Positions 11,957 through 31,700 of a stretch of 32,000 nucleotides of DNA are shown piece by piece. Below the pieces are notes generated by a model, which saw only the letters and a list, made by a program, of their open reading frames with translations, was not told the origin of the DNA and made no database searches. Every line of letters begins with the position of its first letter. Position 1 is the stretch's first letter. The position numbers and the translations under genes were made by a program. The stretch spans positions 2,580,001 to 2,612,000 of the forward strand of contig NC_003272.1 of assembly GCF_000009705.1 (NCBI RefSeq), written 5' to 3'. Origin of the DNA: Nostoc sp. PCC 7120 = FACHB-418 (GTDB lineage: Bacteria; Cyanobacteriota; Cyanobacteriia; Cyanobacteriales; Nostocaceae).

Positions 11957-11996
11957 CGTTCCTCACACCACACAATAAACTTATCAAAGTCAGCCT

Positions 11997-12027
11997 ATTA
12001 CTGCTAATAATTCTTAATAGCAGTTAA
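11997..12027. promoter_or_regulatory. Imperfect AT-rich palindrome upstream of the receptor gene (candidate operator, Fur- or PchR-box-like)
   Basis: ATTACTGCTAATAA-TTC-TTAATAGCAGTTAA, with a perfect core ACTGCTA (12000..12006) / TAGCAGT (12018..12024). It lies 41-71 nt upstream of the ATG at 11956, in the 119-bp AraC-receptor spacer. Confidence 0.3.
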
Positions 12028-12075
12028 AGTAGTATAGGGAAGTTACTCGCAGGGTGTCTATCCAAAAACCGCCAG

Positions 12076-13098
12076 TTATGATCCAAAAACCGTCTTGTGA
12101 CCTGCCAAACATTGTCTAGGTGTGATGCCAAATCGCCGCTTAAATGCCGCCGAAAAATGACCTAAATGCCCATAGCCTACGAGATTTGCTACTTCTGCTA
12201 CTGTTGGTTGGCGTTGCTTGTTGCAGACATCTCCTTGGCGTAATAATTGTTCGGCTTTATCTAAGCGCAACTGTGTCAAATAGCCTACAACCGTTGTCTG
12301 AAAAATTATTTGAAAACCGCGTTGTAGGGTGCGATCGCTCACGCCTACCAGTTGAGCTAATGTTGATAGTGATGGTGGATGCTCGATTTGAGCGGTTAAA
12401 ATTTCTTTGGCGTGGTGGATACGGGCAATTGTATCTGGTTTGAGTTTTGGTAAGTTGCGAATCGGTTCTTGATTGTCAGCAATTAAATCTAGATACAAGG
12501 CTAATAACTCAAACACTTTGGCTTGTAAATAGAGGCGTTTGGCTGCACCGCGATAGGGTGGATGCCATAATTCTTGAGCAAGCGATCGCACTTTTGCTGT
12601 CACCTTTGGGTAAAAAGCCACCTTCCAATCCTCACCCTGGAATAGTTGCTTGATATTGTCTAGCTGCCGTTGTCCATCGTCCAAAAAAGATTCCAGCACC
12701 TCTGGCTCAATTTCTACATTCACAAAACTCAAACGCCCTCCACCTTGATGCTTTTCGGTAACGCCGGGCGAAACCCCACTACCAGAAAAATAACTGCGCG
12801 TCCCATCCAAACGCGGGTGAACCTCATCACAGTCAAAGAATCCCGATAACAAAATATTAATTTGAATTAAATGGTCGTGGGCAGGTATCTTGATCATCAA
12901 ATCCTGGTGGTATTCGCAATCCGCGAAACCCAACGATACCCCAGGTGATAGCTCTATGTAACAAGAATAACCCTGACCAGCAACTTGCGGCATCTGCAAA
13001 ACTTCCTCAAACCCATCAGAGACAAACTTCTGCACATGAGAAGCGGCAGTCTGCTGCCACATCTCATCCCAGTCCGATTTATTGAGGATTAATGTCAT
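12076..13098 (-). CDS. AraC-family transcriptional regulator, PchR-like (upstream of receptor 9320..11956)
   Basis: 340 aa. The N-terminal domain is paralogous to 3339..3722. C-terminal AraC HTH: PSLSTLAQLVGVSDRTLQRGFQIIFQTTVVGYLTQLRLDKAEQLL...VAEVANLVGYGHLGHFSAAFKRRFGITPRQ. Confidence 0.85.
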   Translation of the reverse strand: MTLILNKSDWDEMWQQTAASHVQKFVSDGFEEVLQMPQVAGQGYSCYIELSPGVSLGFADCEYHQDLMIKIPAHDHLIQINILLSGFFDCDEVHPRLDGTRSYFSGSGVSPGVTEKHQGGGRLSFVNVEIEPEVLESFLDDGQRQLDNIKQLFQGEDWKVAFYPKVTAKVRSLAQELWHPPYRGAAKRLYLQAKVFELLALYLDLIADNQEPIRNLPKLKPDTIARIHHAKEILTAQIEHPPSLSTLAQLVGVSDRTLQRGFQIIFQTTVVGYLTQLRLDKAEQLLRQGDVCNKQRQPTVAEVANLVGYGHLGHFSAAFKRRFGITPRQCLAGHKTVFGS

Positions 13099-13124
13099 GG
13101 GGCTACAGACGCAAAACTAGATAG

Positions 13125-13160
13125 TTGCTATTAATTAGCAATTATCATATCACACCTGCT
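13125..13160. promoter_or_regulatory. Leader/promoter elements of the AraC gene: palindrome TTGCTA-TTAAT-TAGCAA plus a motif CACACCTGCT conserved with the pseudogene copy
   Basis: The palindrome is at 13125..13141. CACACCTGCT at 13151..13160 is 53 nt from the start. The same decamer at 3777..3786 is 55 nt from the start of the truncated paralogue, within a ~25-nt alignable stretch. Confidence 0.35.
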
Positions 13161-13394
13161 CATCTTCATTCATTAATCCGATGCAGCAACCTCCTAACGC
13201 TCTTCTATTACTCTCGTTAAATAACAATTCAGACCCCGTGATTTTTAAGGCTTTGATAAATTTAGGAGTAGTAGCGTGTCAAGCCTTAAATGTTGCATTA
13301 AAACATCGATTTTATCCGCGTACCCTGCGGGAAGCAAGCTACATCTGTGTTTAATTTTTCCAATTTAATCCACTATTTTAGCCTTGATACGCCA

Positions 13395-13437
13395 GTAGGT
13401 TGGGTTGAACAACGTGAAACCCAACCTACATTTTTTT
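13395..13437 (+). terminator. Strong canonical intrinsic terminator oriented on the plus strand
   Basis: Perfect 12-bp stem GTAGGTTGGGTT (13395..13406) / AACCCAACCTAC (13418..13429) with an 11-nt loop. It is followed by A + TTTTTTT (13431..13437). There is no U-tract in the minus orientation. Confidence 0.7.
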
Positions 13438-13462
13438 CTTTCATCAGAGTCATAAAATAGCA

Positions 13463-16387: not shown

Positions 16388-16465
16388 AGTTTTTGTCAGT
16401 GGTCAGTTGTCAGTTGTCATTGGTCAGTTGTCATTAGTTAACAGTTAACAGTCAACAACGAACTC
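16388..16465. repeat. STRR-like heptanucleotide tandem repeats in the MCP-CheA spacer
   Basis: GTCAGTG GTCAGTT GTCAGTT GTCATTG GTCAGTT GTCATTA GTTAACA GTTAACA GTCAACA: a 7-bp periodicity that contains TTGGTCA-type units. Confidence 0.85.
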
Positions 16466-18724
16466 TTAACTCACTTTAAAGGTACCCACAGTTTTTTGTA
16501 ACTGATGAGAAATTTCTACAGTTTGTTTGAGAGATTGGGCTACTAGGCGGGAGGAATCGCTGCTGCGTTGTGAGACAGAGGCGATATCTTGCATGAGTCT
16601 ATTAACAGTTTGTGATGTCTCTACTTGCGATACAGTAGCGGTGGAAATTGATTGAATTAAAGAGTCGATTTGCCGTGATACATCTAATATTTGACCCAGG
16701 CTTTGTTTGGCTTCTTCCACAATTCTTGTCCCTTCCACTACTTGGGTAGTTCCTACTTCCATCGCCTTGACGACTTCGTTAGTTTCCCGTTGAATGTTCT
16801 CGACAATTTGCTCAATTTCTTGGGTAGCGACTGCACTTCTAGCGGCTAGTTCGCCAATTTCTTCGGCGACTACGCCAAAACCTTCGCCTTCTTCTCCAGC
16901 ACGGGCGGCTTCGATACCTGCGTTGATGGCGAGGAGGTTGGTTTGGGTGGCGATTTGGTTAATGATGGAGACGACGCGGGAAATTTGTTGTGAAGATTCT
17001 CCCAGGCGTTTAACTTTTTTGGCAGTTTCGCCGACGGTGGTGCGTAAGGACAAGATGTTTTGTACTGTCAAGTCCATTGCTTGTCCACTTTTGGTGGCGG
17101 TAAAGGCTGCATGATTAGCTACGGTGGCTGCTTGTTGGGCGCTGTCGGCTACGGCCTGCATGGAATGGGTCATCTTATCAACTGCGTCTAGGGTACGGTT
17201 GATTTCCGTGGCTTGGGTGAGGGCTTCTTCTGCTAGTTGACGGATTGCACCTTCGTTGGAACCGATAGCAGTGTTTAATTGACCAGCTGCTTGTTTGACT
17301 TGGGTGACGATATCGCGGAGGTTTTCGACTATGGAGTTGAAAAAGTCCGCAACTGTACCGATTTCGCCAGCCGTCACGTCTGCACGGACTGTTAAGTCAC
17401 CTTTGGCGACACCTTCAACATTGCTGAGTAGTTCGAGGAGTTGTAATTGTAAAACATCTTGTGGTTGCCATTCTTGGTCAGGGTTGGTGACGACAAATCC
17501 TTTTTGTTTGACCACAATTTGCAGATGTTCGGCGACTTGGTTAATGTTGGTAGCCAATGCGCCTAACTCGTCTTCCCTTTCTACTTCTATACGGCTGGGG
17601 AATTCACCTTGACCGAGTTTTGCTAAGGTGGTGGTCGCGTTGGATAGGGGTTGTATGGTACGGTTAGCTAACCAAGCTGCGATCGCTCCTACTGCACAAG
17701 CTGCAAATACTGTACCCAAAAGAATTGTCCACAATAGCTGTCGTTGTGGTTGGAATAAAGCATCTGCATCGGTGGTCAAGAGAACTTGCCAGTTTAGGTC
17801 TGGTAGTCCCGCTAAGTTTTGCGGTGGTACATAACTAAGTAATACGGGTTTTTTATTAACTTTGGGAGTGGTAAGGAAACTGGCAACTTTTTTACTATCT
17901 AGAGGTGCGGCTAAATCGGGATAATTGGCTTTGGCTTCTTTACCTAATAGTTCTTTTTCTGGGCTGAGGAAAATTATCCCTGAGGTATCGAGTAAATTAT
18001 ATGTATTGCCATTAACAGCATAGTCTTTGATGACCGCTTCTAGAGCTTTGATGGGCATCTTAGCTCTGACCACAGCGATAATTTGATCTGTGGTAATATC
18101 TTTCACTGGTGCAGTTATATCAATACTTGATGGTTCTGATTGTTGAATAATGGGTGCTTCTTTCTGGAGCGTTTCTTGAAAATAACTTTGACCTTTTTGA
18201 TTATATAAACTTTCCCCTGTAGACTGGGCAATCACATCCCCTTGAATATCGAATACAGCAATACTTTCGTAATTTTGATAAATTTCGATAATACTATCTA
18301 ATACTAGTTGTTTTTCTTCTTTACTTGTTCTACTACTAACTTGGGGATTTGCTAAAAATGGTAGGCGGGAAATAAATTGAATATCTGCATAACGTCCCAA
18401 CATGAAGCGGTTAACTGTGTCGGTTAATTTAGTGGCGGTTGTTTGTTGAGCTTGAGACGTTTGTTGGATAATTGATTTATTGAGTAAGTTGTAGGCGATC
18501 GCACCAACGGTTAAAATGGGGAGTGTACCGAGTGCGATCGCTAAAGCTACGGCTTTTGTTTTTAAGCTTAAGCGTTGGTAATAAACTCCTAAATTCTGCT
18601 GATTAACAAGATGACTCAGCTTATTGGAGATTCGTCCAATCCCATTACTGGATTGTTTAGCAGAAATCAATGATGGTTGATTTTGAGCATCATCACTCTT
18701 AGCCATGTCGGTTTTATTAATCAT
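16466..18724 (-). CDS. Methyl-accepting chemotaxis protein (HmpD/PilJ-type): 2 TM segments, ~250-aa periplasmic sensor region, HAMP, MCP signalling domain
   Basis: 752 aa. TM1 is AVALAIALGTLPILTVGAIAY; TM2 is LLWTILLGTVFAACAVGAIAAWLA. HAMP follows (RTIQPLSNATTTLAKLGQGEF...DELGALATNINQ). Highly conserved MCP hairpin: IINQIATQTNLLAINAGIEAARAGEEGEGFGVVAEEIGELA. Confidence 0.9.
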   Translation of the reverse strand: MINKTDMAKSDDAQNQPSLISAKQSSNGIGRISNKLSHLVNQQNLGVYYQRLSLKTKAVALAIALGTLPILTVGAIAYNLLNKSIIQQTSQAQQTTATKLTDTVNRFMLGRYADIQFISRLPFLANPQVSSRTSKEEKQLVLDSIIEIYQNYESIAVFDIQGDVIAQSTGESLYNQKGQSYFQETLQKEAPIIQQSEPSSIDITAPVKDITTDQIIAVVRAKMPIKALEAVIKDYAVNGNTYNLLDTSGIIFLSPEKELLGKEAKANYPDLAAPLDSKKVASFLTTPKVNKKPVLLSYVPPQNLAGLPDLNWQVLLTTDADALFQPQRQLLWTILLGTVFAACAVGAIAAWLANRTIQPLSNATTTLAKLGQGEFPSRIEVEREDELGALATNINQVAEHLQIVVKQKGFVVTNPDQEWQPQDVLQLQLLELLSNVEGVAKGDLTVRADVTAGEIGTVADFFNSIVENLRDIVTQVKQAAGQLNTAIGSNEGAIRQLAEEALTQATEINRTLDAVDKMTHSMQAVADSAQQAATVANHAAFTATKSGQAMDLTVQNILSLRTTVGETAKKVKRLGESSQQISRVVSIINQIATQTNLLAINAGIEAARAGEEGEGFGVVAEEIGELAARSAVATQEIEQIVENIQRETNEVVKAMEVGTTQVVEGTRIVEEAKQSLGQILDVSRQIDSLIQSISTATVSQVETSQTVNRLMQDIASVSQRSSDSSRLVAQSLKQTVEISHQLQKTVGTFKVS

Positions 18725-18766
18725 AATTGCAGTTAGGGAAAATAATTAATGAGAACAGAAAATATT

Positions 18767-19276
18767 TTATTGATACTTTTGATTACCAATAAGTACAGAA
18801 GAATTGACAATTGCTTGAGCATCTAACACAAGGAAATTTTCTTCCTGTTGTGTCACACAACCACGTAGATAAGGAACCAAACTAGATGCCACTTGTCCAA
18901 TAGGTGACCGAATCTCATCAGGCATGAATTTAGTTATGCCTTTAATCTCTTGTACTACTAAACCCAATAATGTTGATTCTACTTTAATCACAATGACACT
19001 ATATTGATGTAACCGGTTTTCCAACGATTCCAAATTGAGCATTTTTGGTAAATCAATTGCCCAAACTATCCGACTGCGCCAATTCATTAAACCTAAGACA
19101 CAAGGTGGCATATTTGGCATAGGTGTAATAGATTCCACAGGAATCAGAACTGCTTCTTGGGTATGGTTCATCGCTAAAATAGCAGCACTTTGCTGATTGA
19201 GGTAAAATTTTAGATAACCATCTCCTGATTTATTTTGAGGTGACAGAGGAGTCATTAAACTTTGTGAGTTATCCAT
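18767..19276 (-). CDS. CheW-like coupling protein (HmpC/PilI-type)
   Basis: 169 aa with single-domain CheW-like architecture (ITPMPNMPPCVLGLMNWRSRIVWAIDLPKML...VIVIKVESTLLGLVVQEIKGI...FLVLDAQAI). It sits inside the chemotaxis-like operon. Confidence 0.8.
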   Translation of the reverse strand: MDNSQSLMTPLSPQNKSGDGYLKFYLNQQSAAILAMNHTQEAVLIPVESITPMPNMPPCVLGLMNWRSRIVWAIDLPKMLNLESLENRLHQYSVIVIKVESTLLGLVVQEIKGITKFMPDEIRSPIGQVASSLVPYLRGCVTQQEENFLVLDAQAIVNSSVLIGNQKYQ

Positions 19277-19280
19277 TGAT

Positions 19281-19658
19281 TTAAATCACTACAGATTTAA
19301 TAGTACGCAGCAGATTTTCGCGGGTATAGGGTTTTGTAATATAGGCATCTGCACCTTGTTTCATTGCCCACAAACGGTCTATTTCTTGGTTTTTAGAACT
19401 GCAAATTACTATCGGGAGTTTTTCTGTAAGTGGATGTTTTTTCAAGGAACGACATAACTCAAATCCACTCATTCCCGGCATGACAACATCAGTGACAATT
19501 ACATCAGGATTTTCTAATAAAGCTTTCTCTATAGCTTCCTTTGCACCAGCCGCCTTAATTACGTCATAACCACTCTCTTGTAAATAATGACTCATCAGTT
19601 CTAATTCACTAGGTGAGTCTTCAACAATCAAAATTTTGCCGACTAAGGTAATACTCAC
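19281..19658 (-). CDS. Single-domain CheY-like response regulator (HmpB/PilH-type)
   Basis: 125 aa REC domain: KILIVEDSPSE, TDVVMPGMSGFEL, VICSSK, ADAYITKPY. Confidence 0.9.
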   Translation of the reverse strand: MSITLVGKILIVEDSPSELELMSHYLQESGYDVIKAAGAKEAIEKALLENPDVIVTDVVMPGMSGFELCRSLKKHPLTEKLPIVICSSKNQEIDRLWAMKQGADAYITKPYTRENLLRTIKSVVI

Positions 19659-19674
19659 TCTTCAATCTCCTGCC

Positions 19675-20718
19675 TTAAGTAATATGTTTAAACACCATTT
19701 TTAATAATTCCGACTGGTCAAAAGGCTTAGTTAAATAGCCTGAAGACCTGACCATTTTTGCTTTAGCCCTATCAACAAATCCTGTTCTACCAGTCACCAT
19801 AATAATAGGCGTATTTTTAAAGGCTGAATGTCTCCGTAATAGGGAACATAATTCATATCCGTCTAAATTGGGCATTGTCACATCGAGTAAAATTAAGTCT
19901 GGTTTACTCCGCAGAACTTGCATTAAAGCTTTCACAGGATCATTAATAGTCACCACTGTAAATACATTCTCATCTAGAAAACTTCTGATGGAATTTAAGA
20001 CTGTCTGACTATCATCAATACAAGCAATAGTATATAAAGTTTTTCTAACTAGCGATGGAGGATTAATTGGCTGAGAGTTTACGCTATTCTCAGGATGATT
20101 TTGGTTTGATGATGGGGATGAGGCGGGTCTAGTTGATGGCAAAACTTGCGAACCACCACCCGTATTCACAGATGGTGGTGTAGGTTGGCGTTGTCGTAAT
20201 TGTTTTTGGCAATATTCAACTAATAAACGCAAATCTAAATAACAGAATTTTGGCATTTCTTCCCAAAGAATGTCAGGGAAAAACTCATAGCTTCCCTGTT
20301 TGATGACTAAAAATGTCTCTATTACTTCCTTTGCTAGTTCTTCTATCAAGATGGCGGCTTGTTTGGGGTTAATATGGTTCTGATTTACAAGCCAACAAAT
20401 CGCCTGATAATCTGCATATAACATGGATTGATCTTCACCCTTGGGTTCAAACATCAACCGCATTTGTACACGGGTAGCGCTGTTCAGAGTAGGTATTTTT
20501 TGACTTAAGCGCCGCAGTTGATTATCAAAACGCTCAAATAATTTATCTGAGTAGGAAGCGTAAGTAAGTTTACCTGCTTCTAAATTAATTGTCCAAGATG
20601 TGGTGTCTGTAAATACGCGTAAGCAGCCTGTAGCATGACGACTGGTGAGTTGAGCTAAGAGGGATAGGGGATGTAGTTTATGATTTAACCTGTAGTTATT
20701 TATAGGAGTTGTACTCAT
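19675..20718 (-). CDS. PatA-subfamily response regulator (N-terminal PATAN domain + C-terminal REC; HmpA/PilG-type)
   Basis: 347 aa. N-terminus LLAQLTSRHATGCLRVFTDTTSWTINLEAGKLTYASYSD (PATAN-like). A P/S-rich linker follows. C-terminal REC: IACIDDSQTV...LLDVTMPNLDGYELC...IIMVTGR...GYLTKPF. Confidence 0.85.
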   Translation of the reverse strand: MSTTPINNYRLNHKLHPLSLLAQLTSRHATGCLRVFTDTTSWTINLEAGKLTYASYSDKLFERFDNQLRRLSQKIPTLNSATRVQMRLMFEPKGEDQSMLYADYQAICWLVNQNHINPKQAAILIEELAKEVIETFLVIKQGSYEFFPDILWEEMPKFCYLDLRLLVEYCQKQLRQRQPTPPSVNTGGGSQVLPSTRPASSPSSNQNHPENSVNSQPINPPSLVRKTLYTIACIDDSQTVLNSIRSFLDENVFTVVTINDPVKALMQVLRSKPDLILLDVTMPNLDGYELCSLLRRHSAFKNTPIIMVTGRTGFVDRAKAKMVRSSGYLTKPFDQSELLKMVFKHIT

Positions 20719-22879: not shown

Positions 22880-23278
22880 CTAGGACGGCTTTTCTTGATT
22901 TCTGATGTACTCTTTTAGGATCTCTAATGGCGCACCTCCTACGGACACAGCGAAATAACTGGGACTCCACAAGGCTTCTTTGTGGGGTTTCTTGTATCCG
23001 GCTTGTCCATACCTGCGACTAGAGACACCTTTTAAAGCATTAACAATTTGAGAGATGGATAACTTGGGGGGATATTCAATAAGCGCGTGAACATGGTTGT
23101 CTTCACCGTTAAATTCAATTACTTGAAAATCCATTTTATTAGCTACCTCTCTAAACGTTTTTTCAATTAGTTCAATACTTTCCTTTGTGAATACAGACTT
23201 ACGATACTTGGTAACACAGACCAAATGAATTTTTAAGTCCGTAACAGAGTGTCTTTCCCTGCGAAACTGGCTTGTCAC
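22880..23278 (-). CDS. tnpA: IS200/IS605-family Y1 (HuH) transposase TnpA
   Basis: HuH and Tyr motifs: HLVCVTKYRK, NHVHALIEYPPKLSISQIVNALKGVSSR, LWSPSYFAVSVGGAPLEILKEYI. The track ORF extends to 23383. GTG at 23278 (VTSQFRRERHSV...) gives the usual ~132-aa length, so the start is uncertain. Confidence 0.85.
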   Translation of the reverse strand: MTSQFRRERHSVTDLKIHLVCVTKYRKSVFTKESIELIEKTFREVANKMDFQVIEFNGEDNHVHALIEYPPKLSISQIVNALKGVSSRRYGQAGYKKPHKEALWSPSYFAVSVGGAPLEILKEYIRNQEKPS

Positions 23279-23382
23279 TTCTTGTAGACCCTTCGGGTGA
23301 GCAGTCGCTACAAGTCGGGGAACCCGCCCAACGCGCTGCTCACCAATGTATAATACTTCTACAGACCAATTATACATTATCA

Positions 23383-24570
23383 ATGAAAGCCAGATATCAA
23401 TTCCGGTTCTACCCGACAGACCAACAAAAGCAACTGTTAGCGCAGTTGTTTGGTTGCGTTCGCGTAGTCTGGAATGATGCTCTGGCTGTTTGCAAACAGT
23501 CCGAAAAGCTTCCTAGTAACAACGACTTGCAAAAGCTGGTGATTACGCAAGCTAAAAAGACTGATGAGCGTTCATGGTTATCTGATGTTTCTAATATCCC
23601 TTTACAACAATCTGTTGCTGATTTAGGAGTTGCTTACAAAAACTTTTTTGATTCACTCAAGGGTAAACGCAAAGGCAAAAAAGTAGGCACACCCAAGTTT
23701 AAGAAGAAGACAAGTAAACAATCAGCCAGATTTAGAATTGGTGGTTTTTCGATTAAAGGAGATGAAGTCTACCTAGCTAAAATTGGCAACGTCAAGCCTC
23801 TAAAGTCAAGACAATTACCATCTGCACCAAGTAGTGTAACAGTCATTAAAGACTGTGCTAATCGTTATTTTCTTAGCTTTGTCGTAGAAGTAGAGCCTAT
23901 TCAATCTGAAGCTAAAAACCAAAGCATTGGTATTGATTTAGGAATCAAAACTTTTGCGGTTATGAGTAATGGAGAAAAAGCAATCAGTCCCGATTACTCA
24001 AAGAAAGACCGCAAAATTCGCAAACTGCAACGCAAGATAGCAAGACAACAGAAGGGGTCTAAGCGTCGTGAACGAACCCGCTTAAGAATCGCCAAGCAAC
24101 ACAACAAAATTGCGGATACCCGAAAAGACTTCCTTCACAAACTTTCAACCAAAGTAGTTAGTGAAAACCAAGCTATTGTTTTGGAAGATTTGAATGTGTC
24201 AGGAATGGTCAAGAATCGTAAGTTAGCAAGAATAATTAGCTTGCAGGGATGGAGAGAGTTTCGGGTATTTTGTGAGAGTAAATCTGAAAAACTTAATCGG
24301 GATTTCAGGGTCATTAGTAGATGGGAACCTACTAGCCAAACTTGTTCTTGTTGTGGGTATAGGTGGGGCAAGATTGATTTATCTGTGCGCTCAGTGTTGT
24401 GCTTAAACTGCAATACTGAACACGACAGAGATGAGAACGCATCCCAAAATATAAAAATGGTCGGCATGGGGCATCGGCACGACCTTAAACGGGCGCAGAG
24501 GACAGGTAAGACTGGTTCGCCAGCACAGTCCGGTGAAGCGTCAAGAATCACCGCACCTTTAGGTCGGTGA
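23383..24570 (+). CDS. tnpB: TnpB (OrfB) RuvC-like RNA-guided endonuclease of IS200/IS605
   Basis: Start at MKARYQFRFYPTDQQKQLLAQLFGCVRVVWNDAL (ATG 23383). RuvC residues lie in IGIDLGIK, IVLEDLNVSGM and HDRDENAS. Zinc finger: CSCCGY...CLNCNTEH. 395 aa with no frameshifts. Confidence 0.9.
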   Translation: MKARYQFRFYPTDQQKQLLAQLFGCVRVVWNDALAVCKQSEKLPSNNDLQKLVITQAKKTDERSWLSDVSNIPLQQSVADLGVAYKNFFDSLKGKRKGKKVGTPKFKKKTSKQSARFRIGGFSIKGDEVYLAKIGNVKPLKSRQLPSAPSSVTVIKDCANRYFLSFVVEVEPIQSEAKNQSIGIDLGIKTFAVMSNGEKAISPDYSKKDRKIRKLQRKIARQQKGSKRRERTRLRIAKQHNKIADTRKDFLHKLSTKVVSENQAIVLEDLNVSGMVKNRKLARIISLQGWREFRVFCESKSEKLNRDFRVISRWEPTSQTCSCCGYRWGKIDLSVRSVLCLNCNTEHDRDENASQNIKMVGMGHRHDLKRAQRTGKTGSPAQSGEASRITAPLGR

Positions 24571-25144: not shown

Positions 25145-25627
25145 ATGACCACTATGGCTGACCCAACTAACAGCAAAGTACCTGATAATCAACCAACACT
25201 TAAACAAGGTGATACAGGGGAAGTAGTCAAAGAACTACAAAGGCTATTAAGGAGTTATTATTGTTATTCTGGGCCTATTGATGGGGTTTTAGATTCAGAA
25301 ACAGTTGGGGGAGTAATTTTATTTCAGCATCGGGTTTTTATCCCAGAAGATGGAATTGTTGGCTATAAAACTTGGCAAGCTCTATATGAAGGAAGAGTAA
25401 TTGATTTACCTATTTTGAAATATGGTAGCCAAGGTGAACTGGTTAAAGCCTTGCAACAAAGACTCCAAAATGCTGGATACTATACGGGATTGGTTGACGG
25501 AGATTTTAGCTTAGTTACGGAAGCAGGTGTAAAATCTTTTCAACTACGAAATAACTTAAAAGTTGATGGTATTGTAGGCGATCGCACTTGGGCTGTTCTC
25601 AGCAATACACCTATTTTTGACAGTTAA
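25145..25627 (+). CDS. Protein with two peptidoglycan-binding (PG_binding_1) repeats, no catalytic domain and no recognisable signal peptide
   Basis: 160 aa. Repeat 1 is GDTGEVVKELQRLLRSYYCYSGPIDGVLDSETVGGVILFQHRVFIPEDGIVGYKTWQAL. Repeat 2 is GSQGELVKALQQRLQNAGYYTGLVDGDFSLVTEAGVKSFQLRNNLKVDGIVGDRTWAVL. The N-terminus MTTMADPTNSKVPDNQPTLK is hydrophilic. Confidence 0.8.
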   Translation: MTTMADPTNSKVPDNQPTLKQGDTGEVVKELQRLLRSYYCYSGPIDGVLDSETVGGVILFQHRVFIPEDGIVGYKTWQALYEGRVIDLPILKYGSQGELVKALQQRLQNAGYYTGLVDGDFSLVTEAGVKSFQLRNNLKVDGIVGDRTWAVLSNTPIFDS

Positions 25628-25758: not shown

Positions 25759-28416
25759 TTACAACCAATTACCAATTAATACATAGGCAGACCAATAACT
25801 TGGGGCGCTGTAGTTGGGATGTTGTAATAATTTTAGTTGGGCGCGGCGGAGGGCTTCGGCTTTAGTGATGTTGTTGTTTTTGAGTTCTCGATAGAAGTCG
25901 CCAACCAATAAAGCTGTTGATTCATCATCAATTTGCCACAGAGATGCTACCGTACTGCGTGCGCCGGCGCGGACTGCGGCTCCTGCTAGACCAAGAGCAG
26001 CGCGATTGTCTCCGGCTGCGGTTTGACAAGCGCTTAACACTAATAGTTCTACTGCACTCGGACGAATTTGCTCTTGACCACGCAGCAAGGTATCAAATTG
26101 GGTGACGTTGATTGGCCCATCTGATGCCAAAATAAAAGTGTTTTCAGCACGGGAACTAAACTGGCCATGGGTGGCTAAATGCACTACGTTAAAGGAGACG
26201 GTATTGACTTCTTTTTCTAGTGCTTCGCGGGTAAATTGCTGGTCGAACAAACTAGTAATGGAAACTCCCGCGCTAGCAATTAAATCTACTTCCGACTTGA
26301 TTGCAGGTAATGGGGCAAAGTTGGGGTAATTTGGCGGGGGTTGAGTGAGTCCAGCAGTTAATGCTCTCAGGTCTCCTCGTTGTAGTGGTTTGGGGTCGAG
26401 GAGTTGCAAACCTACACTCAAGGCGATCGCATATTTTTCTATTAAGTATTGCTGTCCATCATAGAGTGCGCCTAGTGGTAAATTTCGTAATAAACCATCG
26501 GGGACAAACACGAGAGTTTTTACCCCACTAGCTGCTAGTTCTGATTCAATAGGTTTGATGAGCCAGTCATAAACCTGTTGTGATTGAGTTTTGACGGCTT
26601 TGCTAGCCGTGGGACGAACCAGATTTTCGCGTAGTTCGCTCAGAACTTTGTCTACTTCTTTTTGCTCAACATTAGTGCTGTAAAGTTGCAAAGGTTTGTG
26701 GGGAATTTTAACGATTACCTGAATTTGTCGCCGCAAAATAATCGGGTAGAGAATCGCCGCCGTGGGGTTATCTTGGTCTACCACTTGATCGAGTAACACT
26801 GTTTCACCTTGTAAACAGGCTTCCCGAAAGAAGTTATCTAATTCTGCCAATTGTAATGCTTCAATCCGTTGCCGGGCTTTATCAAGGATTTTTTCGTTAA
26901 CTTTTTCTGGCTGGGATGACAATAATAACTCTACTGATTGCCTATAGATGGGTTCTACACTGTCGCGGAAGTTAAACTGCACATCTTGATTGACGGCTAC
27001 TAAGTCACTGCGTAGGGATTTTAGGCTTTCTACTGCTGCATCATAAGCGGCGATCGCCCCAGATATATCTTTTTGCGCCCACAACAACCGCCCCAATTGC
27101 CACTGCAAGCGATAGATAATGTCTGAGGCGTTACTAGCCTGGGCTAAGATTAAGGCTTGTTGGGTGAGACTGTTGGCTTCTGACCACTGCTGGTTTTGTT
27201 CATACAAATTCCCCAAACTCAAGATTGCATAAGCTTCTGCCCGTTTATCATCCAAGCTGCGGGATTGCTGGATAGTTGTTGCTAATAATTTGGCTACATC
27301 CTGAGTGCTTGGTGCTAATGGCACATTTTTATTCCGCCCTTGGTTCTCGGAACTCGTAAGTTTCATGAGACTTTGAGCAAAGTTAATCTCGGCGTAGATA
27401 GCCGCACGACTAGGGGGTAATTGGTTGATTTGGTCTTGAATTGCTGGGATTAAAGCTGCCACTTCCGTGAATTTTTCGTTGTCCAGCAACAAACTGAGGT
27501 GGTTAACTTGGGCTTGAATTTTCGTTAAAGGTGCGGGGGATGCGGCTATTGTTTGTTGATAAAAATTGATCGCCTCTGATATTTGCAGTTTAGCGCGGGC
27601 ATTGTTGCCCAAACTAAAGTAACTAGCTGCAACCTCCCCAGGTATTGCCAAGCGTTTGGCAACTTCTAGACTCTGTTCTAAGGTAGTGCGGGAGTCCATT
27701 AAATTCCCTGCTACCATCAGGGCATCACCAAGCGATCGCAATCCTACAGCTTTTTCCAGGGAGTCTGGCTGTGATTGTAATTTTTGTCTAACTTCTAGTA
27801 AAACTTTCACCGCCCGACGATAAAATCCTTGTGTCCGCCATGCCTGGGCTTGATTGATTTGCGATCGCACTTCGCCATTAAAATTGTTAGTTTGTTGATA
27901 TATCTTGGCTGTGCGCTGCCAAGTGCTTAAAGCTGCCTCTGCTTTACCCGTCGCCAGTTGCAAACGGCCTTGAATATCTAATGATTGGGCTAATACTTGG
28001 GGGTTCTGTTCTTTGCCCTCAAGTAAATTTAAGCTGTCTGTAATCGCCTGCTGTGCTTGTTGCCACGCACCTATTTGTTGATAGGCTAAAGACAAGTTAC
28101 TAAGAGTCGCTGCTAATTTGAGATTTTCACCCTTTTGCAGATATTCTTGTGCCACCTGCTGTAATATCTGCACTGCTTCGGCAAACCTGCCTGTATCGTA
28201 TAGGGCTTTACCCTGTTCTACTAGGGAGATGGTAGAAGTGACTTGTGCGGTATGAGTTGGGGTGACTACTTTTGCCAACACTGGCGAATTCACCGTGCAG
28301 ATCAACGCCAACAGAAAGCACAAAGCCAAACGTAAGGACTTGACCAGCTTACCCTTTATCTTCCGTATTCTTCCTGTAACAAAATCAGGATAATAGACCC
28401 TAGTAGTTTTATTCAT
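25759..28416 (-). CDS. Exported TPR-repeat + CHAT-domain (caspase-like Cys protease) protein
   Basis: The likely start is MNKTTRVYY... (ATG 28416), which overlaps the upstream stop within ATGAATAA. Signal/anchor LRLALCFLLALICTVNSPVLA. A ~550-aa TPR-like array follows (repeated A..L..A...G.W..A motifs). C-terminal CHAT domain with His (VVHLATHGQF) and Cys (LLVLSACQTAAGD) of the catalytic dyad, then ...ASLWQIDDEST...YWSAYVLIGNWL. Confidence 0.85.
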   Translation of the reverse strand: MNKTTRVYYPDFVTGRIRKIKGKLVKSLRLALCFLLALICTVNSPVLAKVVTPTHTAQVTSTISLVEQGKALYDTGRFAEAVQILQQVAQEYLQKGENLKLAATLSNLSLAYQQIGAWQQAQQAITDSLNLLEGKEQNPQVLAQSLDIQGRLQLATGKAEAALSTWQRTAKIYQQTNNFNGEVRSQINQAQAWRTQGFYRRAVKVLLEVRQKLQSQPDSLEKAVGLRSLGDALMVAGNLMDSRTTLEQSLEVAKRLAIPGEVAASYFSLGNNARAKLQISEAINFYQQTIAASPAPLTKIQAQVNHLSLLLDNEKFTEVAALIPAIQDQINQLPPSRAAIYAEINFAQSLMKLTSSENQGRNKNVPLAPSTQDVAKLLATTIQQSRSLDDKRAEAYAILSLGNLYEQNQQWSEANSLTQQALILAQASNASDIIYRLQWQLGRLLWAQKDISGAIAAYDAAVESLKSLRSDLVAVNQDVQFNFRDSVEPIYRQSVELLLSSQPEKVNEKILDKARQRIEALQLAELDNFFREACLQGETVLLDQVVDQDNPTAAILYPIILRRQIQVIVKIPHKPLQLYSTNVEQKEVDKVLSELRENLVRPTASKAVKTQSQQVYDWLIKPIESELAASGVKTLVFVPDGLLRNLPLGALYDGQQYLIEKYAIALSVGLQLLDPKPLQRGDLRALTAGLTQPPPNYPNFAPLPAIKSEVDLIASAGVSITSLFDQQFTREALEKEVNTVSFNVVHLATHGQFSSRAENTFILASDGPINVTQFDTLLRGQEQIRPSAVELLVLSACQTAAGDNRAALGLAGAAVRAGARSTVASLWQIDDESTALLVGDFYRELKNNNITKAEALRRAQLKLLQHPNYSAPSYWSAYVLIGNWL

Positions 28417-30844
28417 GAATATGGCAGATGGTGGACGAAAACCAGGGATGTTGATGATTAACAGTAGGAACTGGAGCAACTAAAGCAATATTGCCATTGG
28501 TATCCATCACCCATCCCTGTGCTTCCACAATTTTAGGGGAATCAGGGTTATCCACAACATTAATGGGCGTAAAATTACTGATTGTTAACAAATGGTGAGG
28601 ACTGGGGGAATTTTTGGTTTCCCTGTCTCCTGGAAAAGTTGCTTTCAGTCCTGGTTCTGTCTCACCATCTGAACTACAAACCTGGGTTAGCCTGGATGTA
28701 TTGATGGGATTTGTAGAGAACGCAGCAAATCTCTGACGAGAGTCTACATCCGGCTGGTTAATTGTGACCATACTTGTGAAAGATGGGCTGGCCTGTGAGA
28801 AAGTCAGGATATCATTGGTGAGTAGAAATCCTGAGTCAAGCTGATTTGGGTCGGTAGTCCCTAAAATTTGCTCAAGTTCGCCTCGATTACGCACAACTAA
28901 ACCAAGAAATTTCTGAGTACTGATTGTCACCCTACCCCCTGCACCCCCGAACACATTGGCGGTGATGTCGTTATTTTCATTGGGAGTTGCCACAATGAAA
29001 GGGCTATTAATTTCGATGTTGCCACCATTACCGTCAGCAAATGTAGAAATTTGACTATTAAGGCGTAGTCGCAATATGGCGCTGAGATTGAGATTTATAT
29101 TGCCACCATTACCGGAGGTAGTTTGAGCAATCAATTGACTTTGGTTATCTAGTTTAAGCGATCGCGCCTTGATAGATAAATTTCCCGACTCTCCAGCCAC
29201 CGTAACTTCTGCCCCATTTTGAATAATTAGGCGATCGCCTACAATATTTAAGTTATCTGCCGTTATCCTGGCTCCGTTTTCTACAGTCAGTAATCCAGTA
29301 TTGATATTTAATGTGCTGTCATTGGTGGTAGTTCCTGCTTGAGTTACAGCAAAAATCCCACTACGAAAAATATCTAAAGATGAGGCTGTAGCAAATTGGG
29401 AAGTACCACTCACTTGCATACCTGCTGAGGCATTAATCAATAGGTCTCCCCCCTGACTTCCATACCTAGAAACATTAGATATTTGTGCGCCACCTTGAAT
29501 ATTTAACTGTTGAGTTTCTAAGGTAATTGTGCCAGTATTACCTGCATTTTCTGGAGCATCGGGGGCAACTTGCGCGAAAATTCCACTGGGAATATCGCCA
29601 TCGGCACTTTCTCCCCTCAAATCTATAGAATCTGTAGCTCTAACTAAAATATTTCCCGTGTTTCCTGCACCAAATGTAGAAGCTTCTATCCCTGCACCAT
29701 CTGTTAGTAAAAGTCGCCTAGTTTCAATGGTCAAATTGCCACCATTACCTGTCACATTGGCACAACTTTCCCCTAAAGAACAGACCTGTGAACCAATAAA
29801 TGATTCTTCCCCCAGTTCTACCGAATCTTTAGCCGTAATCCAAATATCTCCCGCCTTAGCTTGAGATTGAGCAATAGTCAAGATATTAGAAATACCACCT
29901 ACTTTTAAAGATTCAGTAGCATTAACAATGAGGCTATTTCCTGTTTGCAAACCAAAATTAACTGCAAAAACTAGTGAATCGTCAATAGTGACATTTCTCC
30001 CTTGAATTTGAATTGCACCACCACTATCTTGCATGGGGATACTACCAGTATTAACTAAAGTTCCAGCCGCAAGCCTGATATCTCCAAAATTTTGTACACC
30101 TGAATATCCAGCAGCGTAAGCATCATCAACTTGGCTGAGGCTGACAAAACCACCTCCAGTAACGCTACCTAGCTCAACTCTCCCCCCTGGCGCTTCCAAA
30201 AGACTACTTTCTAATAATAAATTCCCACCGATTAATCCTAAAGTTCTGCCATTTCCTACTTGCAATCCCAAAGGTAAATCAGCAACAATCGGCTGTTCAA
30301 TATTTCCCGGACTATCACCAAATTGTAACCCTACAGGAACATTTACTGTTAATAAAGAAGTATTATTATTAGTAGTTGCATTAAATTCTAACCCATCAGC
30401 AAACTTGATACTATTTGCAGTCGTCGCCACAAAAGAACCACCAATATTTAAACTAGCATTTGCCCCAAAAATTATGCCCTGGGGATTAATCAAAAACAAA
30501 TTAGCTCTACTACCTGAGGCGGCTGTAATCAAACCATCAATATAACTATGTGAGCCACCAGTAATTCTAGTAATAATGTTTCGCACTGCCAAATTGTGGT
30601 TAAAAATAGCAACATTTCCTGTAACATTGCTAGTTAAAACAGAAAAAGAAAATTCCCTAAAACTATGAAATAAATTTTCTCCCCTTTGAGTACCTCCCTC
30701 AATTACTCGGATGTTCCCTACAGGTCTAACAATAGAGTTAGTAGGAAGCGTATCATCAGGAATAATTTCTGCTTTTGCGGCTGTAAAGTTTAATAAACAT
30801 AATGAAATACTGATGTTCCCGATTAAAAACTTAAATTTGGCCAT
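28409..30844 (-). CDS. Filamentous-haemagglutinin-like exoprotein: N-terminal TPS (haemagglutination activity) secretion domain + right-handed beta-helix repeats + unique ~130-aa C-terminus
   Basis: Start at ATG 30844 (MAKFKFLIGNISISLCLLNFTAAKA, signal peptide); GTG 30853 is an alternative. TPS-domain motifs: GGTQRGENLFHSFREFS, ANLFLINPQGIIFGANASLNIGGSFVATT. Repetitive G/N/T-rich beta-helix region with GNGGNI units. C-terminal ...KIVEAQGWVMDTNGNIALVA... Confidence 0.85.
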   Translation of the reverse strand: MAKFKFLIGNISISLCLLNFTAAKAEIIPDDTLPTNSIVRPVGNIRVIEGGTQRGENLFHSFREFSFSVLTSNVTGNVAIFNHNLAVRNIITRITGGSHSYIDGLITAASGSRANLFLINPQGIIFGANASLNIGGSFVATTANSIKFADGLEFNATTNNNTSLLTVNVPVGLQFGDSPGNIEQPIVADLPLGLQVGNGRTLGLIGGNLLLESSLLEAPGGRVELGSVTGGGFVSLSQVDDAYAAGYSGVQNFGDIRLAAGTLVNTGSIPMQDSGGAIQIQGRNVTIDDSLVFAVNFGLQTGNSLIVNATESLKVGGISNILTIAQSQAKAGDIWITAKDSVELGEESFIGSQVCSLGESCANVTGNGGNLTIETRRLLLTDGAGIEASTFGAGNTGNILVRATDSIDLRGESADGDIPSGIFAQVAPDAPENAGNTGTITLETQQLNIQGGAQISNVSRYGSQGGDLLINASAGMQVSGTSQFATASSLDIFRSGIFAVTQAGTTTNDSTLNINTGLLTVENGARITADNLNIVGDRLIIQNGAEVTVAGESGNLSIKARSLKLDNQSQLIAQTTSGNGGNINLNLSAILRLRLNSQISTFADGNGGNIEINSPFIVATPNENNDITANVFGGAGGRVTISTQKFLGLVVRNRGELEQILGTTDPNQLDSGFLLTNDILTFSQASPSFTSMVTINQPDVDSRQRFAAFSTNPINTSRLTQVCSSDGETEPGLKATFPGDRETKNSPSPHHLLTISNFTPINVVDNPDSPKIVEAQGWVMDTNGNIALVAPVPTVNHQHPWFSSTICHIHE

Positions 30845-31113
30845 ATTTTTCACAAAATCAAATAAGAATAATTACAACTAATATCTGATTTGTGTGAAAA
30901 AAAACGGACTTTATTTTAGGGTTATTTATATTTTTTAAATCAATTATTTATAAGAGGATGTTTGCAAAGTTACTCTCTCTCTACAATTTTTGTCCTGTAC
31001 TTAGTACTGGCCATTGCTTCTTGATACGTAGATAGTAGCTTTTGTCTCTCGAAAATTCCCCACTGAATCATTTAGAATATATCAACAAACATATGATTTA
31101 CAAAAATAACACT

Positions 31114-31350
31114 ATGAGCAGTAACCTCTTACAACGCATTACCTACAATCCCGAAATTTGTCACGGCAAGCCTTGTATAAGAGGACTTCGTTATCCTGTA
31201 GAATTGATTCTGGAATTACTTAGCGCAGGCATGACACCAGATGAAATCTTAGCAGATTATGACGATTTAGAGCGGGAAGATATTTTTGCGGCTCTGCAAT
31301 TTGCTGTGCGTCTTAGCCAAGTTAAAAGTATACATAAAATTGCTTCATGA
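31114..31350 (+). CDS. DUF433-domain protein (HTH-like, putative antitoxin)
   Basis: The likely start is MSSNLLQRITYNPEICHGKPCIRGLRYPVELILELLSAGMTPDEILADYDDLEREDIFAAL. The HGKPCIRG...P motif and the D.P.L..EDI ending are DUF433 hallmarks. A 4-nt ATGA overlap links it to the next gene. Confidence 0.75.
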   Translation: MSSNLLQRITYNPEICHGKPCIRGLRYPVELILELLSAGMTPDEILADYDDLEREDIFAALQFAVRLSQVKSIHKIAS

Positions 31351-31700
31351 GATTTCTGGTTGATTCTCAATTACCTGCTCGACTTGCTCGATTCCTAGAA
31401 TTTGCGGGTTATGACACAATTCATACAAGAGATTTGCCTAATCGAAATGCTACATCAGATATAGAAATTAACGCGATATCAATACGAGATGAGCGCATAT
31501 TAATTACGAAGGATTCTGATTTTTTAAATTCTTTTTTAACGATTCAAAAACCGTTTAAATTATTACTTATAACAACAGGTAATATTAACAACTTAGAATT
31601 AGAAGCATTATTTGCAGCTAACTTAAAAGCTTTGGTCGAATTATTTGAGAGTCACTCCTATATTGAAATGAGTCGTGATTCAATTATTGCTCACCTGTAA
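31347..31700 (+). CDS. DUF5615-family PIN-like (Mut7-C-like) putative nuclease/toxin
   Basis: 117 aa: MRFLVDSQLPARLARFLEFAGYDTIHTRDL...ILITKDSDF, the typical DUF5615 N-terminus. It is paired with DUF433 upstream. Confidence 0.7.
   Translation: MRFLVDSQLPARLARFLEFAGYDTIHTRDLPNRNATSDIEINAISIRDERILITKDSDFLNSFLTIQKPFKLLLITTGNINNLELEALFAANLKALVELFESHSYIEMSRDSIIAHL

Follow-up and report, generated by a model that had tools for sequence, protein, structure and literature searches.

An apparently coupled gene pair for a TpsA-type exoprotein and a putatively exported TPR-CHAT protease in Nostoc sp. PCC 7120, a possible arm of a cyanobacterial envelope sensing system

Two-partner secretion (TPS) is well studied in proteobacterial pathogens. 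A TPS pair is combined with processing proteases in FhaB/FhaC of Bordetella (SphB1, CtpA and DegP) and with the periplasmic cysteine protease LapG in CdrA/CdrB of Pseudomonas aeruginosa, and HMW1A/HMW1B/HMW1C of Haemophilus influenzae form a three-gene TPS operon whose third gene is that for an accessory enzyme with the TpsA protein as its target. Cyanobacteria possess very many TpsA and TpsB genes for which we know of no function. To our knowledge, nearly all CHAT proteases described so far act as cytoplasmic effectors (Craspase, gasdermin activators), and DdvA is the one case from the periplasm. Here, we analyze a stretch of 32,000 nucleotides from Nostoc sp. PCC 7120 (contig NC_003272.1, positions 2,580,001 to 2,612,000, hereafter called the window), in which a gene for a TpsA-like, putatively beta-helical exoprotein overlaps the gene for a TPR-CHAT protease, all2170. 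We propose, with a probability that we put at roughly 0.45, that all2170 and its partner, presumably all2171, make up the extracytoplasmic protease and filament arm of a conserved cyanobacterial envelope sensing system.

DdvA of Myxococcus xanthus is a transmembrane anti-sigma factor with a periplasmic TPR-CHAT part and, according to the authors who described it, the sole characterized periplasmic TPR-CHAT protein (PMC11506125). These authors propose that signal-induced autoproteolysis frees DdvS, a sigma factor of the extracytoplasmic function (ECF) type, which turns on a phage-defence island, and they found DdvA-like proteins only in Myxococcota and in one Comamonas (PMC11506125). Caspase-CHASE2 proteins accompanied by an ECF sigma factor and DUF1822 have been described by Kaur, Iyer, Burroughs and Aravind (2021, PMC8195603); exported TPR-CHAT, DUF928, TpsA or TpsB proteins are not mentioned in the main text of that article. 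Cyanobacterial TpsB proteins belong to the HMW1B subgroup (Heinz and Lithgow, 2014), and the same survey of the Omp85/TpsB superfamily makes no mention of CHAT. Caspase-like releasing peptidases occur in secreted toxins, and C-terminal caspase-like domains can be toxins themselves (Zhang, 2012); the peptidases are listed in that survey of polymorphic toxins, though not for type V systems. Full-text literature searches combining 'CHAT domain' with 'two-partner secretion' or 'hemagglutinin' returned nothing. All components are of known kinds. To judge by these searches, their combination, a TpsA with a coupled exported TPR-CHAT protein, often together with TpsB, DUF928 and CHASE2, has not yet been reported as a whole.

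The positions of all features are collected in Table 1. The first gene of the pair encodes 814 amino acids when read from a GTG at 30853 and 811 when read, as public gene predictions do, from the ATG at 30844. The Pfam TPS profile PF05860 matches residues 28-283 over its complete length (positions 1-252 of 252; E=2.6e-67, 227.8 bits with a cut-off of 33.5) and TIGR01901 matches with E=1.4e-17. The sequence carries NLFHSF, INPQGIIFG and GNGGNI/L repeats, and an alignment of 13 TpsA relatives revealed N57, L58, F59, H60, S61, N120, P121 and G123 as unchanged, such that NLFHSF and NPxG are invariant. At the amino terminus, MAKFKFLIGNISISLCLLNFTAAKA/E exhibits a typical n-region, hydrophobic core and c-region as judged by eye. 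The carboxy-terminal region holds IVEAQGWVMDTNGNIALVA, a motif of the form IVEAQGWV.D.NG.I.LVA, and nearly all cyanobacterial relatives of the all2171-type TpsA (loci L005-L092) end in IxEAQGW...G.I.L.A between two conserved cysteines. This element may serve as an anchor or plug in this TpsA family. Taken together, a predicted signal peptide, a complete TPS domain, glycine-rich repeats and a Cys-bracketed carboxy-terminal region identify the all2171 product as a probable TpsA-type protein. A TpsA of the contact-dependent inhibition (CDI) or polymorphic-toxin kind was considered as well and ruled out: Pfam finds the TPS domain alone, the carboxy terminus is a conserved family motif and not a variable tip, and there is no immunity gene, the next gene downstream being that for the 885-residue protease.

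The protease gene is identified as all2170 because two published single nucleotide polymorphisms of that gene match the window exactly once 2,580,000 is subtracted from their chromosome positions. T4A (ACT>GCT) at chromosome position 2608407 corresponds to 28407, and codon 4 reads ACT at 28405-28407; L424L (TTA>TTG) at 2607145 corresponds to 27145, and codon 424 reads TTA at 27145-27147. At the junction of the two genes the sequence reads ...CAT ATT CAT GAA TAA AAC..., with the TpsA stop codon TAA at 28409-28411 and the ATG of the protease at 28414-28416 within the overlap ATGAATAA. To judge from this arrangement, the two genes are in all likelihood translationally coupled. The amino terminus of All2170 consists of a basic n-region, a hydrophobic core of 13 residues and the site SPVLA/K, in which P45 and A48 are unchanged across 50 orthologues of 65-87% identity. 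Here 28 residues precede the core, compared to 7-30 in orthologues. Signal-peptide-like amino termini are present on every TPR-CHAT partner of TpsA that was inspected (Nostocales, Nostoc plasmids, Acaryochloris). The CHAT domain contains the motifs HLATHGQF and LSACQTA, and H750 and C797 are invariant in the same 50 orthologues. An AlphaFold2 (AF2) model shows a helix at residues 22-42, a disordered linker, a TPR solenoid at residues 65-470, a helical scaffold up to about residue 550 and an alpha/beta CHAT domain. Searching the PDB with this model via Foldseek yielded DdvA as the best match (8RW5/8ROT, E~1e-11), with human separase and Csx29 of Craspase as the further TPR-CHAT proteases among the top matches, all with a probability of 1.00. 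A sequence-profile search of the PDB with the TPR-CHAT protein retrieved generic TPR proteins only, and the kinship to DdvA, separase and Csx29 is therefore seen by fold alone. An amino-terminal TPR or helical array and a carboxy-terminal CHAT domain are united in one chain in All2170 just as in separase, Csx29 and DdvA. From these features, the protein looks like an active protease built for export.

Both genes are under purifying selection. Compared with four orthologues, the protease has a ratio of non-synonymous to synonymous substitution rates (dN/dS) of 0.11-0.16 and TpsA one of 0.23-0.34; even for the nearest relative that shares the gene layout of PCC 7120, the values are 0.13 for CHAT and 0.34 for TpsA. 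Most of what an earlier note on this DNA had read from the letters of the sequence has stood up: an exoprotein of 811-814 residues with a TPS domain and GNGGNI repeats, an overlap of its stop with the start of an 885-residue protein (of 8 nucleotides), a CHAT domain with an intact His/Cys dyad on the latter, and a signal peptide or anchor at its beginning, which the amino terminus with its invariant residues fits. The TPR array of about 550 residues stated there was slightly generous; TPR units are present, the array proper covering residues 65 to 470 or thereabouts and the remainder up to about residue 550 being helical scaffold.

Table 1. Location of the features discussed. Positions are those of the window, except for entries with an L number, which are given in the coordinates of the respective locus.
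Feature	Position	Strand	Basis
TPR-CHAT protease gene all2170, putatively exported, 885 residues	25759..28416	minus	Pfam; 100% identical to PCC 7120 protein
Stop/start overlap of 8 nt, ATGAATAA	28409..28416	minus	read in sequence
Predicted signal peptide or anchor of TPR-CHAT, residues 1-48, site SPVLA/K	28273..28416	minus	sequence, invariant residues, AF2 helix
TPR array, residues 65-468	27013..28224	minus	Pfam TPR_12, TPR_2, TPR_MalT; AF2 paired helices, pLDDT (predicted local distance difference test) mostly 85-95
CHAT caspase-like domain, residues 612-883	25768..26583	minus	PF12770, E=2e-59
Catalytic codon His750	26167-26169	minus	checked in sequence
Catalytic codon Cys797	26026-26028	minus	checked in sequence
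Gene for TpsA-like, putatively beta-helical exoprotein, presumably all2171	28409..30853	minus	open reading frame, public gene calls, Pfam TPS, dN/dS
TPS secretion domain with NLFHSF and NPQGI motifs	30005..30772	minus	PF05860, TIGR01901, alignment of relatives
Predicted Sec signal peptide of TpsA, MAKFKFLIGNISISLCLLNFTAAKA/E	30770..30844	minus	by eye from sequence
Conserved C-terminal region of TpsA, Cys723 to Cys807	28412..28678	minus	alignments
Single-chain fusions	L032:2531-7858; L040:2-4210; L173:8001-13337; L174:8001-13088
Plasmid cassettes TpsA-(TpsB)-CHAT (Nostoc, Trichormus, Acaryochloris)	L088:9902-14174; L089:12914-17071; L090:11887-16388; L091:11958-16469; L092:11736-14258
Loci illustrating CHASE2/DUF928 neighbours of TPR-CHAT	L102, L107, L111, L139, L146, L169, L170
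TonB-dependent receptor with N-terminal AMIN domain	9320-11956
Complete chemotaxis-like cluster	within 9320-20718
IS200/IS605-type element	22880-24570	TnpA minus, TnpB plus
Protein of 160 residues with two PG_binding_1 domains	25145-25627
DUF433/DUF5615 pair	31042-31700

The conservation of the pairing was followed in three surveys, the genome, plasmid and metagenome locus counts of which are raw and not dereplicated by lineage: survey a covered 80 species-level genome loci of all2170 orthologues (61-95% identity) annotated with seed proteins, survey b consisted of tblastn searches of plasmids with TpsA and CHAT, in which 21 records were shown in both lists, and survey c comprised 80 metagenome loci anchored on TpsA relatives (30-53% identity). 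Genes for TpsA and TPR-CHAT reside at most 5 kb apart in 16 of the 21 plasmid records. TpsA-TpsB-CHAT operons are found on plasmids of Nostoc sp. C057 and Acaryochloris marina S15, and TpsA-CHAT combinations with no TpsB in between on plasmids of a Nostoc lichen symbiont, Trichormus variabilis 0441 and Acaryochloris 'Moss Beach'. In the metagenome set, 45 TpsA-anchored loci extend 3 kb or more downstream; 14 of them exhibit the order TpsA>CHAT and four the order TpsA>TpsB>CHAT. Twenty-eight TpsA-anchored loci have at least 5 kb on both sides; 14 of these contain TPR-CHAT and only six TpsB, and the missing neighbouring TpsB gene is therefore the usual state in this TpsA family. The overlap ATGAATAA is identical in the closest clade (L001, L008, L009, L010 and L072); L005, L011, L090, L091 and L092 exhibit overlaps of 1-14 nucleotides or a gap of 15, and solely in L033 is the gap wider. 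Two Scytonema genomes feature a TpsB gene directly upstream of the all2170 orthologue.

The two proteins also occur as one. A fusion first met in L032 served as a query that retrieved 120 protein clusters, and at least 116 of these best 120 combine TPS and CHAT in one chain, in the order Glycos_transf_2 (GT2), TPS and CHAT. The fusions, which occur in many Nostocales, comprise 1,600-2,200 residues, namely an amino-terminal family-2 glycosyltransferase, a signal-peptide-like segment, the TPS domain, a beta-helix, a long Pro/Thr linker and a carboxy-terminal CHAT domain with intact dyad. Their topology is odd in that a cytoplasmic-type enzyme stands before a signal for export. A TpsB gene is situated within about 2 kb on the opposite strand in each of the three fusion contexts inspected. 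With adjacency, overlaps and fusions in view, a functional link between TpsA and CHAT is well supported.

The plasmid cassettes have neighbours of their own. A convergent gene for a TPR-like protein of about 300 residues overlaps the 3' end of the CHAT gene and is followed by a gene for a Ser/Thr kinase or a TPR protein; a protein of the NB-ARC/NACHT type (STAND NTPase) or another ATP-binding protein also follows in four of five cassettes, and an NAD(P)/FAD oxidoreductase is often encoded upstream.

Around the all2170 orthologues, a wider gene set comes into play. The commonest layout there is [216-aa protein]-TPR-CHAT-DUF1822-CHAT-CHASE2-DUF928. The trio of DUF1822, CHAT-CHASE2 and DUF928 is located downstream in 42 of the 68 orthologue loci with enough flank (e.g., L007:13017-17378, L006, L011, L072), and the gene for the 216-residue protein is found upstream of TPR-CHAT in about 30 of 74 (27-30; e.g., L005:6339-6989, L006:9334-9984). 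The latter gene is highly conserved in many Nostocales and directly precedes either TPR-CHAT or TpsA-TPR-CHAT. Its product yields no match to Pfam, NCBIfam or PDB profiles and none to a sigma factor profile; motifs near both termini resemble sigma-70 regions 2 and 4, and together with the gene associations reported by Kaur et al. this led us to describe it as sigma-like. DUF928 proteins have a signal peptide, the conserved sequence PPxGGRxxGGxRRGxCP...LTALVP and two conserved cysteines. Of 26 TpsA-anchored loci with TPR-CHAT, 18 also contain DUF928 and/or CHASE2 and 14 contain both. The extracytoplasmic set is constant (TpsA, sometimes TpsB, TPR-CHAT, DUF928 and the CHASE2 domain) and the cytoplasmic output of the CHASE2 protein varies between CHAT, an AAA_35 ATPase, a histidine kinase with or without receiver, a Ser/Thr kinase and a nucleotide cyclase. 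A constant sensing side with interchangeable outputs has the looks of a sensory module, and this suggests that TPR-CHAT and its DUF928 neighbour belong to a conserved extracytoplasmic sensing set for CHASE2 receptors. Anabaena subtropica (L072, 86% identical) keeps TpsA, TPR-CHAT, DUF1822, CHAT-CHASE2 and DUF928 together. The reduced layout of PCC 7120 is shared by the 95%-identical Nostoc parmelioides locus L008, and we infer that PCC 7120 has lost the genes of the wider module from this locus, where the filament-plus-protease arm alone remains.

These comparisons bear on what had been concluded previously. That the pair is an envelope-directed functional unit is supported by adjacency in several cyanobacterial orders, the overlap, the fusions, the signal peptides and purifying selection, and the pairing, whose conservation across cyanobacteria had been posed as a check along with that of the overlap, recurs in 18 of 45 metagenome loci and 16 of 21 plasmid records. 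The absence of a nearby TpsB gene was correctly seen in the earlier note, given that neither the 32-kb window nor the 7.5 kb beyond its end contains a ShlB/POTRA (TpsB) gene and that tblastn finds no remnant in the window; it does not hold as an anomaly, with TpsB adjacent in only six of the 28 well-flanked relatives. The statement that TpsA-CHAT pairs are uncharacterised agrees with our full-text searches, which found no paper on the pairing, and the view of CHAT domains as mostly cytoplasmic effectors needs the addition that an exported TPR-CHAT protein has a solved precedent in DdvA. What fell short was the extent of the module: DUF928, CHASE2 with its variable output, DUF1822 and the sigma-like protein had been missed, and they point to sensing at least as much as to maturation.

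In the sequence of events that we envisage, TpsA would be exported via Sec and then threaded to the surface by a TpsB protein that is encoded elsewhere in PCC 7120 and adjacently in other cyanobacteria. The TPR-CHAT protein would stay in the periplasm, bind a protein partner via its TPR array and perform regulated cuts there, the likeliest targets being the carboxy-terminal part of TpsA and/or the secreted DUF928 protein. The outcome may then, in most relatives, be read into the cytoplasm by the adjoining CHASE2 receptor, with DUF1822 and the small sigma-like protein taking part. A farther-reaching version appears doubtful to us and is offered as speculation: the TPS filament, the periplasmic TPR-CHAT protein and DUF928 might jointly generate or process the signal for CHASE2 receptors, amounting to protease-based surface signalling in multicellular cyanobacteria that influences phage susceptibility and differentiation. 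In its CHAT-CHASE2 form, such a pathway would employ two caspase-like proteases, one on either side of the inner membrane, and end at a sigma-like factor, and the PCC 7120 pair would be its tractable extracytoplasmic arm.

Several observations weigh against an envelope sensing function of the pair, beginning with the raw nature of the locus counts. TpsA is encoded directly upstream in only six of the 74 all2170-orthologue loci with enough flank in survey a; these six are the closest relatives of the copy in the window, with PCC 7524 as one more, and the 68 orthologues without an adjacent TpsA imply that the protease is not strictly dependent on a neighbouring TpsA. Conversely, the carboxy-terminal motif of TpsA is present with or without a CHAT neighbour and is therefore a trait of the TpsA family and not of the pairing. 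Genes for CHASE2, DUF928, DUF1822 or the sigma-like protein are absent from the window and left no remnants there detectable by tblastn, and the 120 best-matching relatives of the TpsB linked to the module in Scytonema include no protein from PCC 7120. The AF2 model of All2170 is only moderate overall (pLDDT 74.8, pTM, the predicted template modelling score, 0.62), its TPR part lying mostly above 85, and the model of TpsA, computed with the fusion proteins as alignment, is all-beta over residues 190-650 and yet unreliable (pLDDT 48). Location, activity and substrate of both proteins are predictions.

Published alleles add hints that are weak evidence and count among these reservations, as T4A comes from a strain mutated at a second site as well and the other allele leaves the protein unchanged. 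Kolan et al. (2024) found T4A in all2170 together with an intergenic indel in the phage-resistant PCC 7120 substrain RD2, which forms no heterocysts, has large granulated cells and looks like a hetF mutant, and they proposed that all2170 acts in the HetF pathway. Their proposal is based on a single strain, which carries two mutations and was not complemented. A second study reported only the synonymous change L424L. T4A resides in the n-region of the predicted signal peptide, two nucleotides past the TpsA stop codon, and, if causal, may exert its effect via translational coupling or export instead of via the mature protease. A resistant strain with lowered phage adsorption has the substitution A127V in Alr1906, which is also a TPS protein of PCC 7120.

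Among the other explanations, a pure maturation or release function, as suggested in the earlier note, fares best, though we regard it as rather unlikely. TPR-CHAT would only trim or free the TpsA filament, as SphB1 and CtpA do for FhaB and LapG for CdrA, and no signalling would be involved. The order TpsA>(TpsB)>CHAT and the apparent translational coupling fit, caspase-like releasing peptidases have precedents in secreted toxins (Zhang, 2012), the Cys-bracketed region of TpsA could be held in the periplasm, and the CHAT domain at the carboxy terminus of the fused TpsA occupies the position of a retained or self-processing domain. The motif in that region, however, is not specific to CHAT-linked TpsA proteins, and the 68 of 74 close orthologues that lack an adjacent TpsA keep DUF1822, CHASE2 and DUF928. 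A fixed extracytoplasmic set with variable CHASE2 outputs is, moreover, a signature of sensory systems.

The structural match to DdvA, the best that we obtained, brings up a second possibility, a sensor protease of an alternative sigma factor; the TpsA gene would then have been inserted, without any relation to them, between the sigma-like and TPR-CHAT genes. The gene for the 216-residue sigma-like protein directly upstream in 27-30 of 74 loci points in this direction, as does the ECF sigma factor in such neighbourhoods (PMC8195603), and TpsA is limited to the subclade closest to PCC 7120, where in L005, L011 and L033 it lies between the 216-aa gene and TPR-CHAT. All2170, however, has just 28 residues before its hydrophobic core and no cytoplasmic anti-sigma domain, the 216-residue protein matches none of the profiles searched, and its gene is absent from the PCC 7120 locus. 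A neutral insertion does not account for the repeated, independent occurrence of TpsA-CHAT adjacency and fusions in distant lineages, and we consider this possibility improbable.

It is still less probable that CHAT is a delivered effector, i.e., an exoprotease or toxin directed against competitors, phage or a host, with TpsA/TpsB as carrier or adhesin. The GT2-TPS-CHAT fusions indeed put CHAT at the cargo position of TpsA, past the Pro/Thr-rich linker, polymorphic toxin systems include carboxy-terminal caspase-like domains that can act as toxins, and many cassettes are plasmid-borne beside genes for STAND NTPases and kinases typical of conflict systems. The separate TPR-CHAT protein, however, is devoid of a TPS domain and cannot itself be a TpsB substrate, the window contains no immunity-like small gene after all2170, and strong purifying selection on CHAT is unlike the behaviour of diversifying toxin tips. 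Profiles of defence systems (PADLOC) gave nothing beyond weak TPR and BovA-like matches, and the pair is thus not a catalogued defence system. Least probable of all is a decayed remnant, stranded and functionless after the loss of TpsB, CHASE2, DUF928 and DUF1822 near the IS200/IS605 element: partners are missing from window and flank, the element is close by and L008 has the same reduced layout, but neither reading frame is disrupted and every catalytic and TPS motif is in place, the junction with its overlap is conserved, dN/dS remains low (0.13 and 0.34) even against the closest relative with the reduced layout, and a missense all2170 allele arose in a selected phage-resistant strain.

The surroundings of the pair in PCC 7120 are unrelated to it, as the earlier note had stated for the PG-binding and DUF433/DUF5615 genes that flank it. 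They comprise a chemotaxis-like cluster with a PatA-type response regulator, CheY, CheW, a Cache-HAMP methyl-accepting chemotaxis protein and a hybrid CheA, as well as proA and an IS200/IS605-type element consisting of the Y1 transposase TnpA and a TnpB with a Cas12f-like TNB domain. This element, at a distance of 1.2 kb from the 3' end of the CHAT gene, takes up the place that DUF1822, CHAT-CHASE2 and DUF928 have in relatives. The PG_binding_1 gene is convergent with the CHAT gene, and its product has no obvious signal peptide; the same gene is located 2.5 kb downstream in the 95%-identical Nostoc parmelioides L008 and not in other relatives. The genes for DUF433 and DUF5615 (PIN-like, Mut7-C) overlap by four nucleotides, resemble a toxin-antitoxin pair and are divergent from the TpsA gene. 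Rfam and tRNA scans found nothing, and a promoter and terminator scan of the locus did no better than on shuffled sequence.

We know of no ligand for CHASE2 since the domain was defined. A conserved cassette of coupled TpsA and exported TPR-CHAT would add a class of accessory enzyme to type Vb systems and, as it is often joined to DUF928 and to CHASE2 with interchangeable outputs, would offer a concrete route to the question of that ligand. As PCC 7120 is a model organism that is amenable to genetics, has known phages and offers a first, weak mutant phenotype, the hypotheses are directly testable on its copy of the pair.

A comparison with known systems shows where the locus stands. It shares with FhaB and CdrA an amino-terminal TPS domain on an exoprotein, here putatively of the beta-helix type, and a separate putative envelope protease that is genetically or functionally tied to it; as in CdrA, the carboxy-terminal region could stay in the periplasm, and the Cys pair of All2171 is reminiscent of the CdrA 'cysteine hook'. 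Unlike in these systems, the protease is a TPR-CHAT protein (caspase-like, clan CD) and not a subtilisin autotransporter, a tail-specific protease or an enzyme of the LapG type. It is apparently translationally coupled to TpsA, TpsB would be unlinked in PCC 7120, the cassette usually comes with CHASE2 and DUF928, and cleavage is putative.

With DdvA, All2170 has in common a TPR-CHAT part with a His-Cys dyad, predicted here to lie on the periplasmic side of the inner membrane, a sigma-type gene directly upstream in many orthologue loci and, albeit weakly in the case of all2170, a link to phage resistance. The two proteins differ (~14% identity) in that All2170 begins with a predicted signal peptide or short anchor and lacks a zinc-binding anti-sigma domain in the cytoplasm; Pfam and NCBIfam detect no family of such domains in it, and there is no cognate ECF sigma gene next to all2170 in the window. 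DdvA, for its part, is not associated with genes for TPS, TpsB, DUF928 or CHASE2. The all2170 family shares its neighbours with the EACC2-caspase-CHASE2 systems (PMC8195603), as CHAT-CHASE2, DUF1822 and the small sigma-like gene adjoin TPR-CHAT in most orthologue loci, whereas none of the genes of these systems is present in the window.

Craspase (Cas7-11/gRAMP with Csx29) and separase have the same TPR and CHAT architecture and fold. They work in the cytoplasm or the nucleus, where RNA or securin activates them, in contrast to All2170 with its predicted export signal, and neither the window nor the related loci contain cas genes that would suggest an association with Cas7-11/gRAMP or Csx30/Csx31. 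HetF, the protease of the caspase-haemoglobinase fold that is required in heterocyst differentiation and cell division of Nostoc/Anabaena, belongs to the same organism and to the same Pfam CHAT superfamily as All2170. The HMW1 operon finally resembles the cassettes in that a gene for an accessory enzyme accompanies the TPS genes, and the GT2-TPS-CHAT fusions even add a glycosyltransferase to the same chain. In HMW1, the accessory enzyme is a cytoplasmic glycosyltransferase; in the cyanobacterial cassettes, it would be an exported protease.

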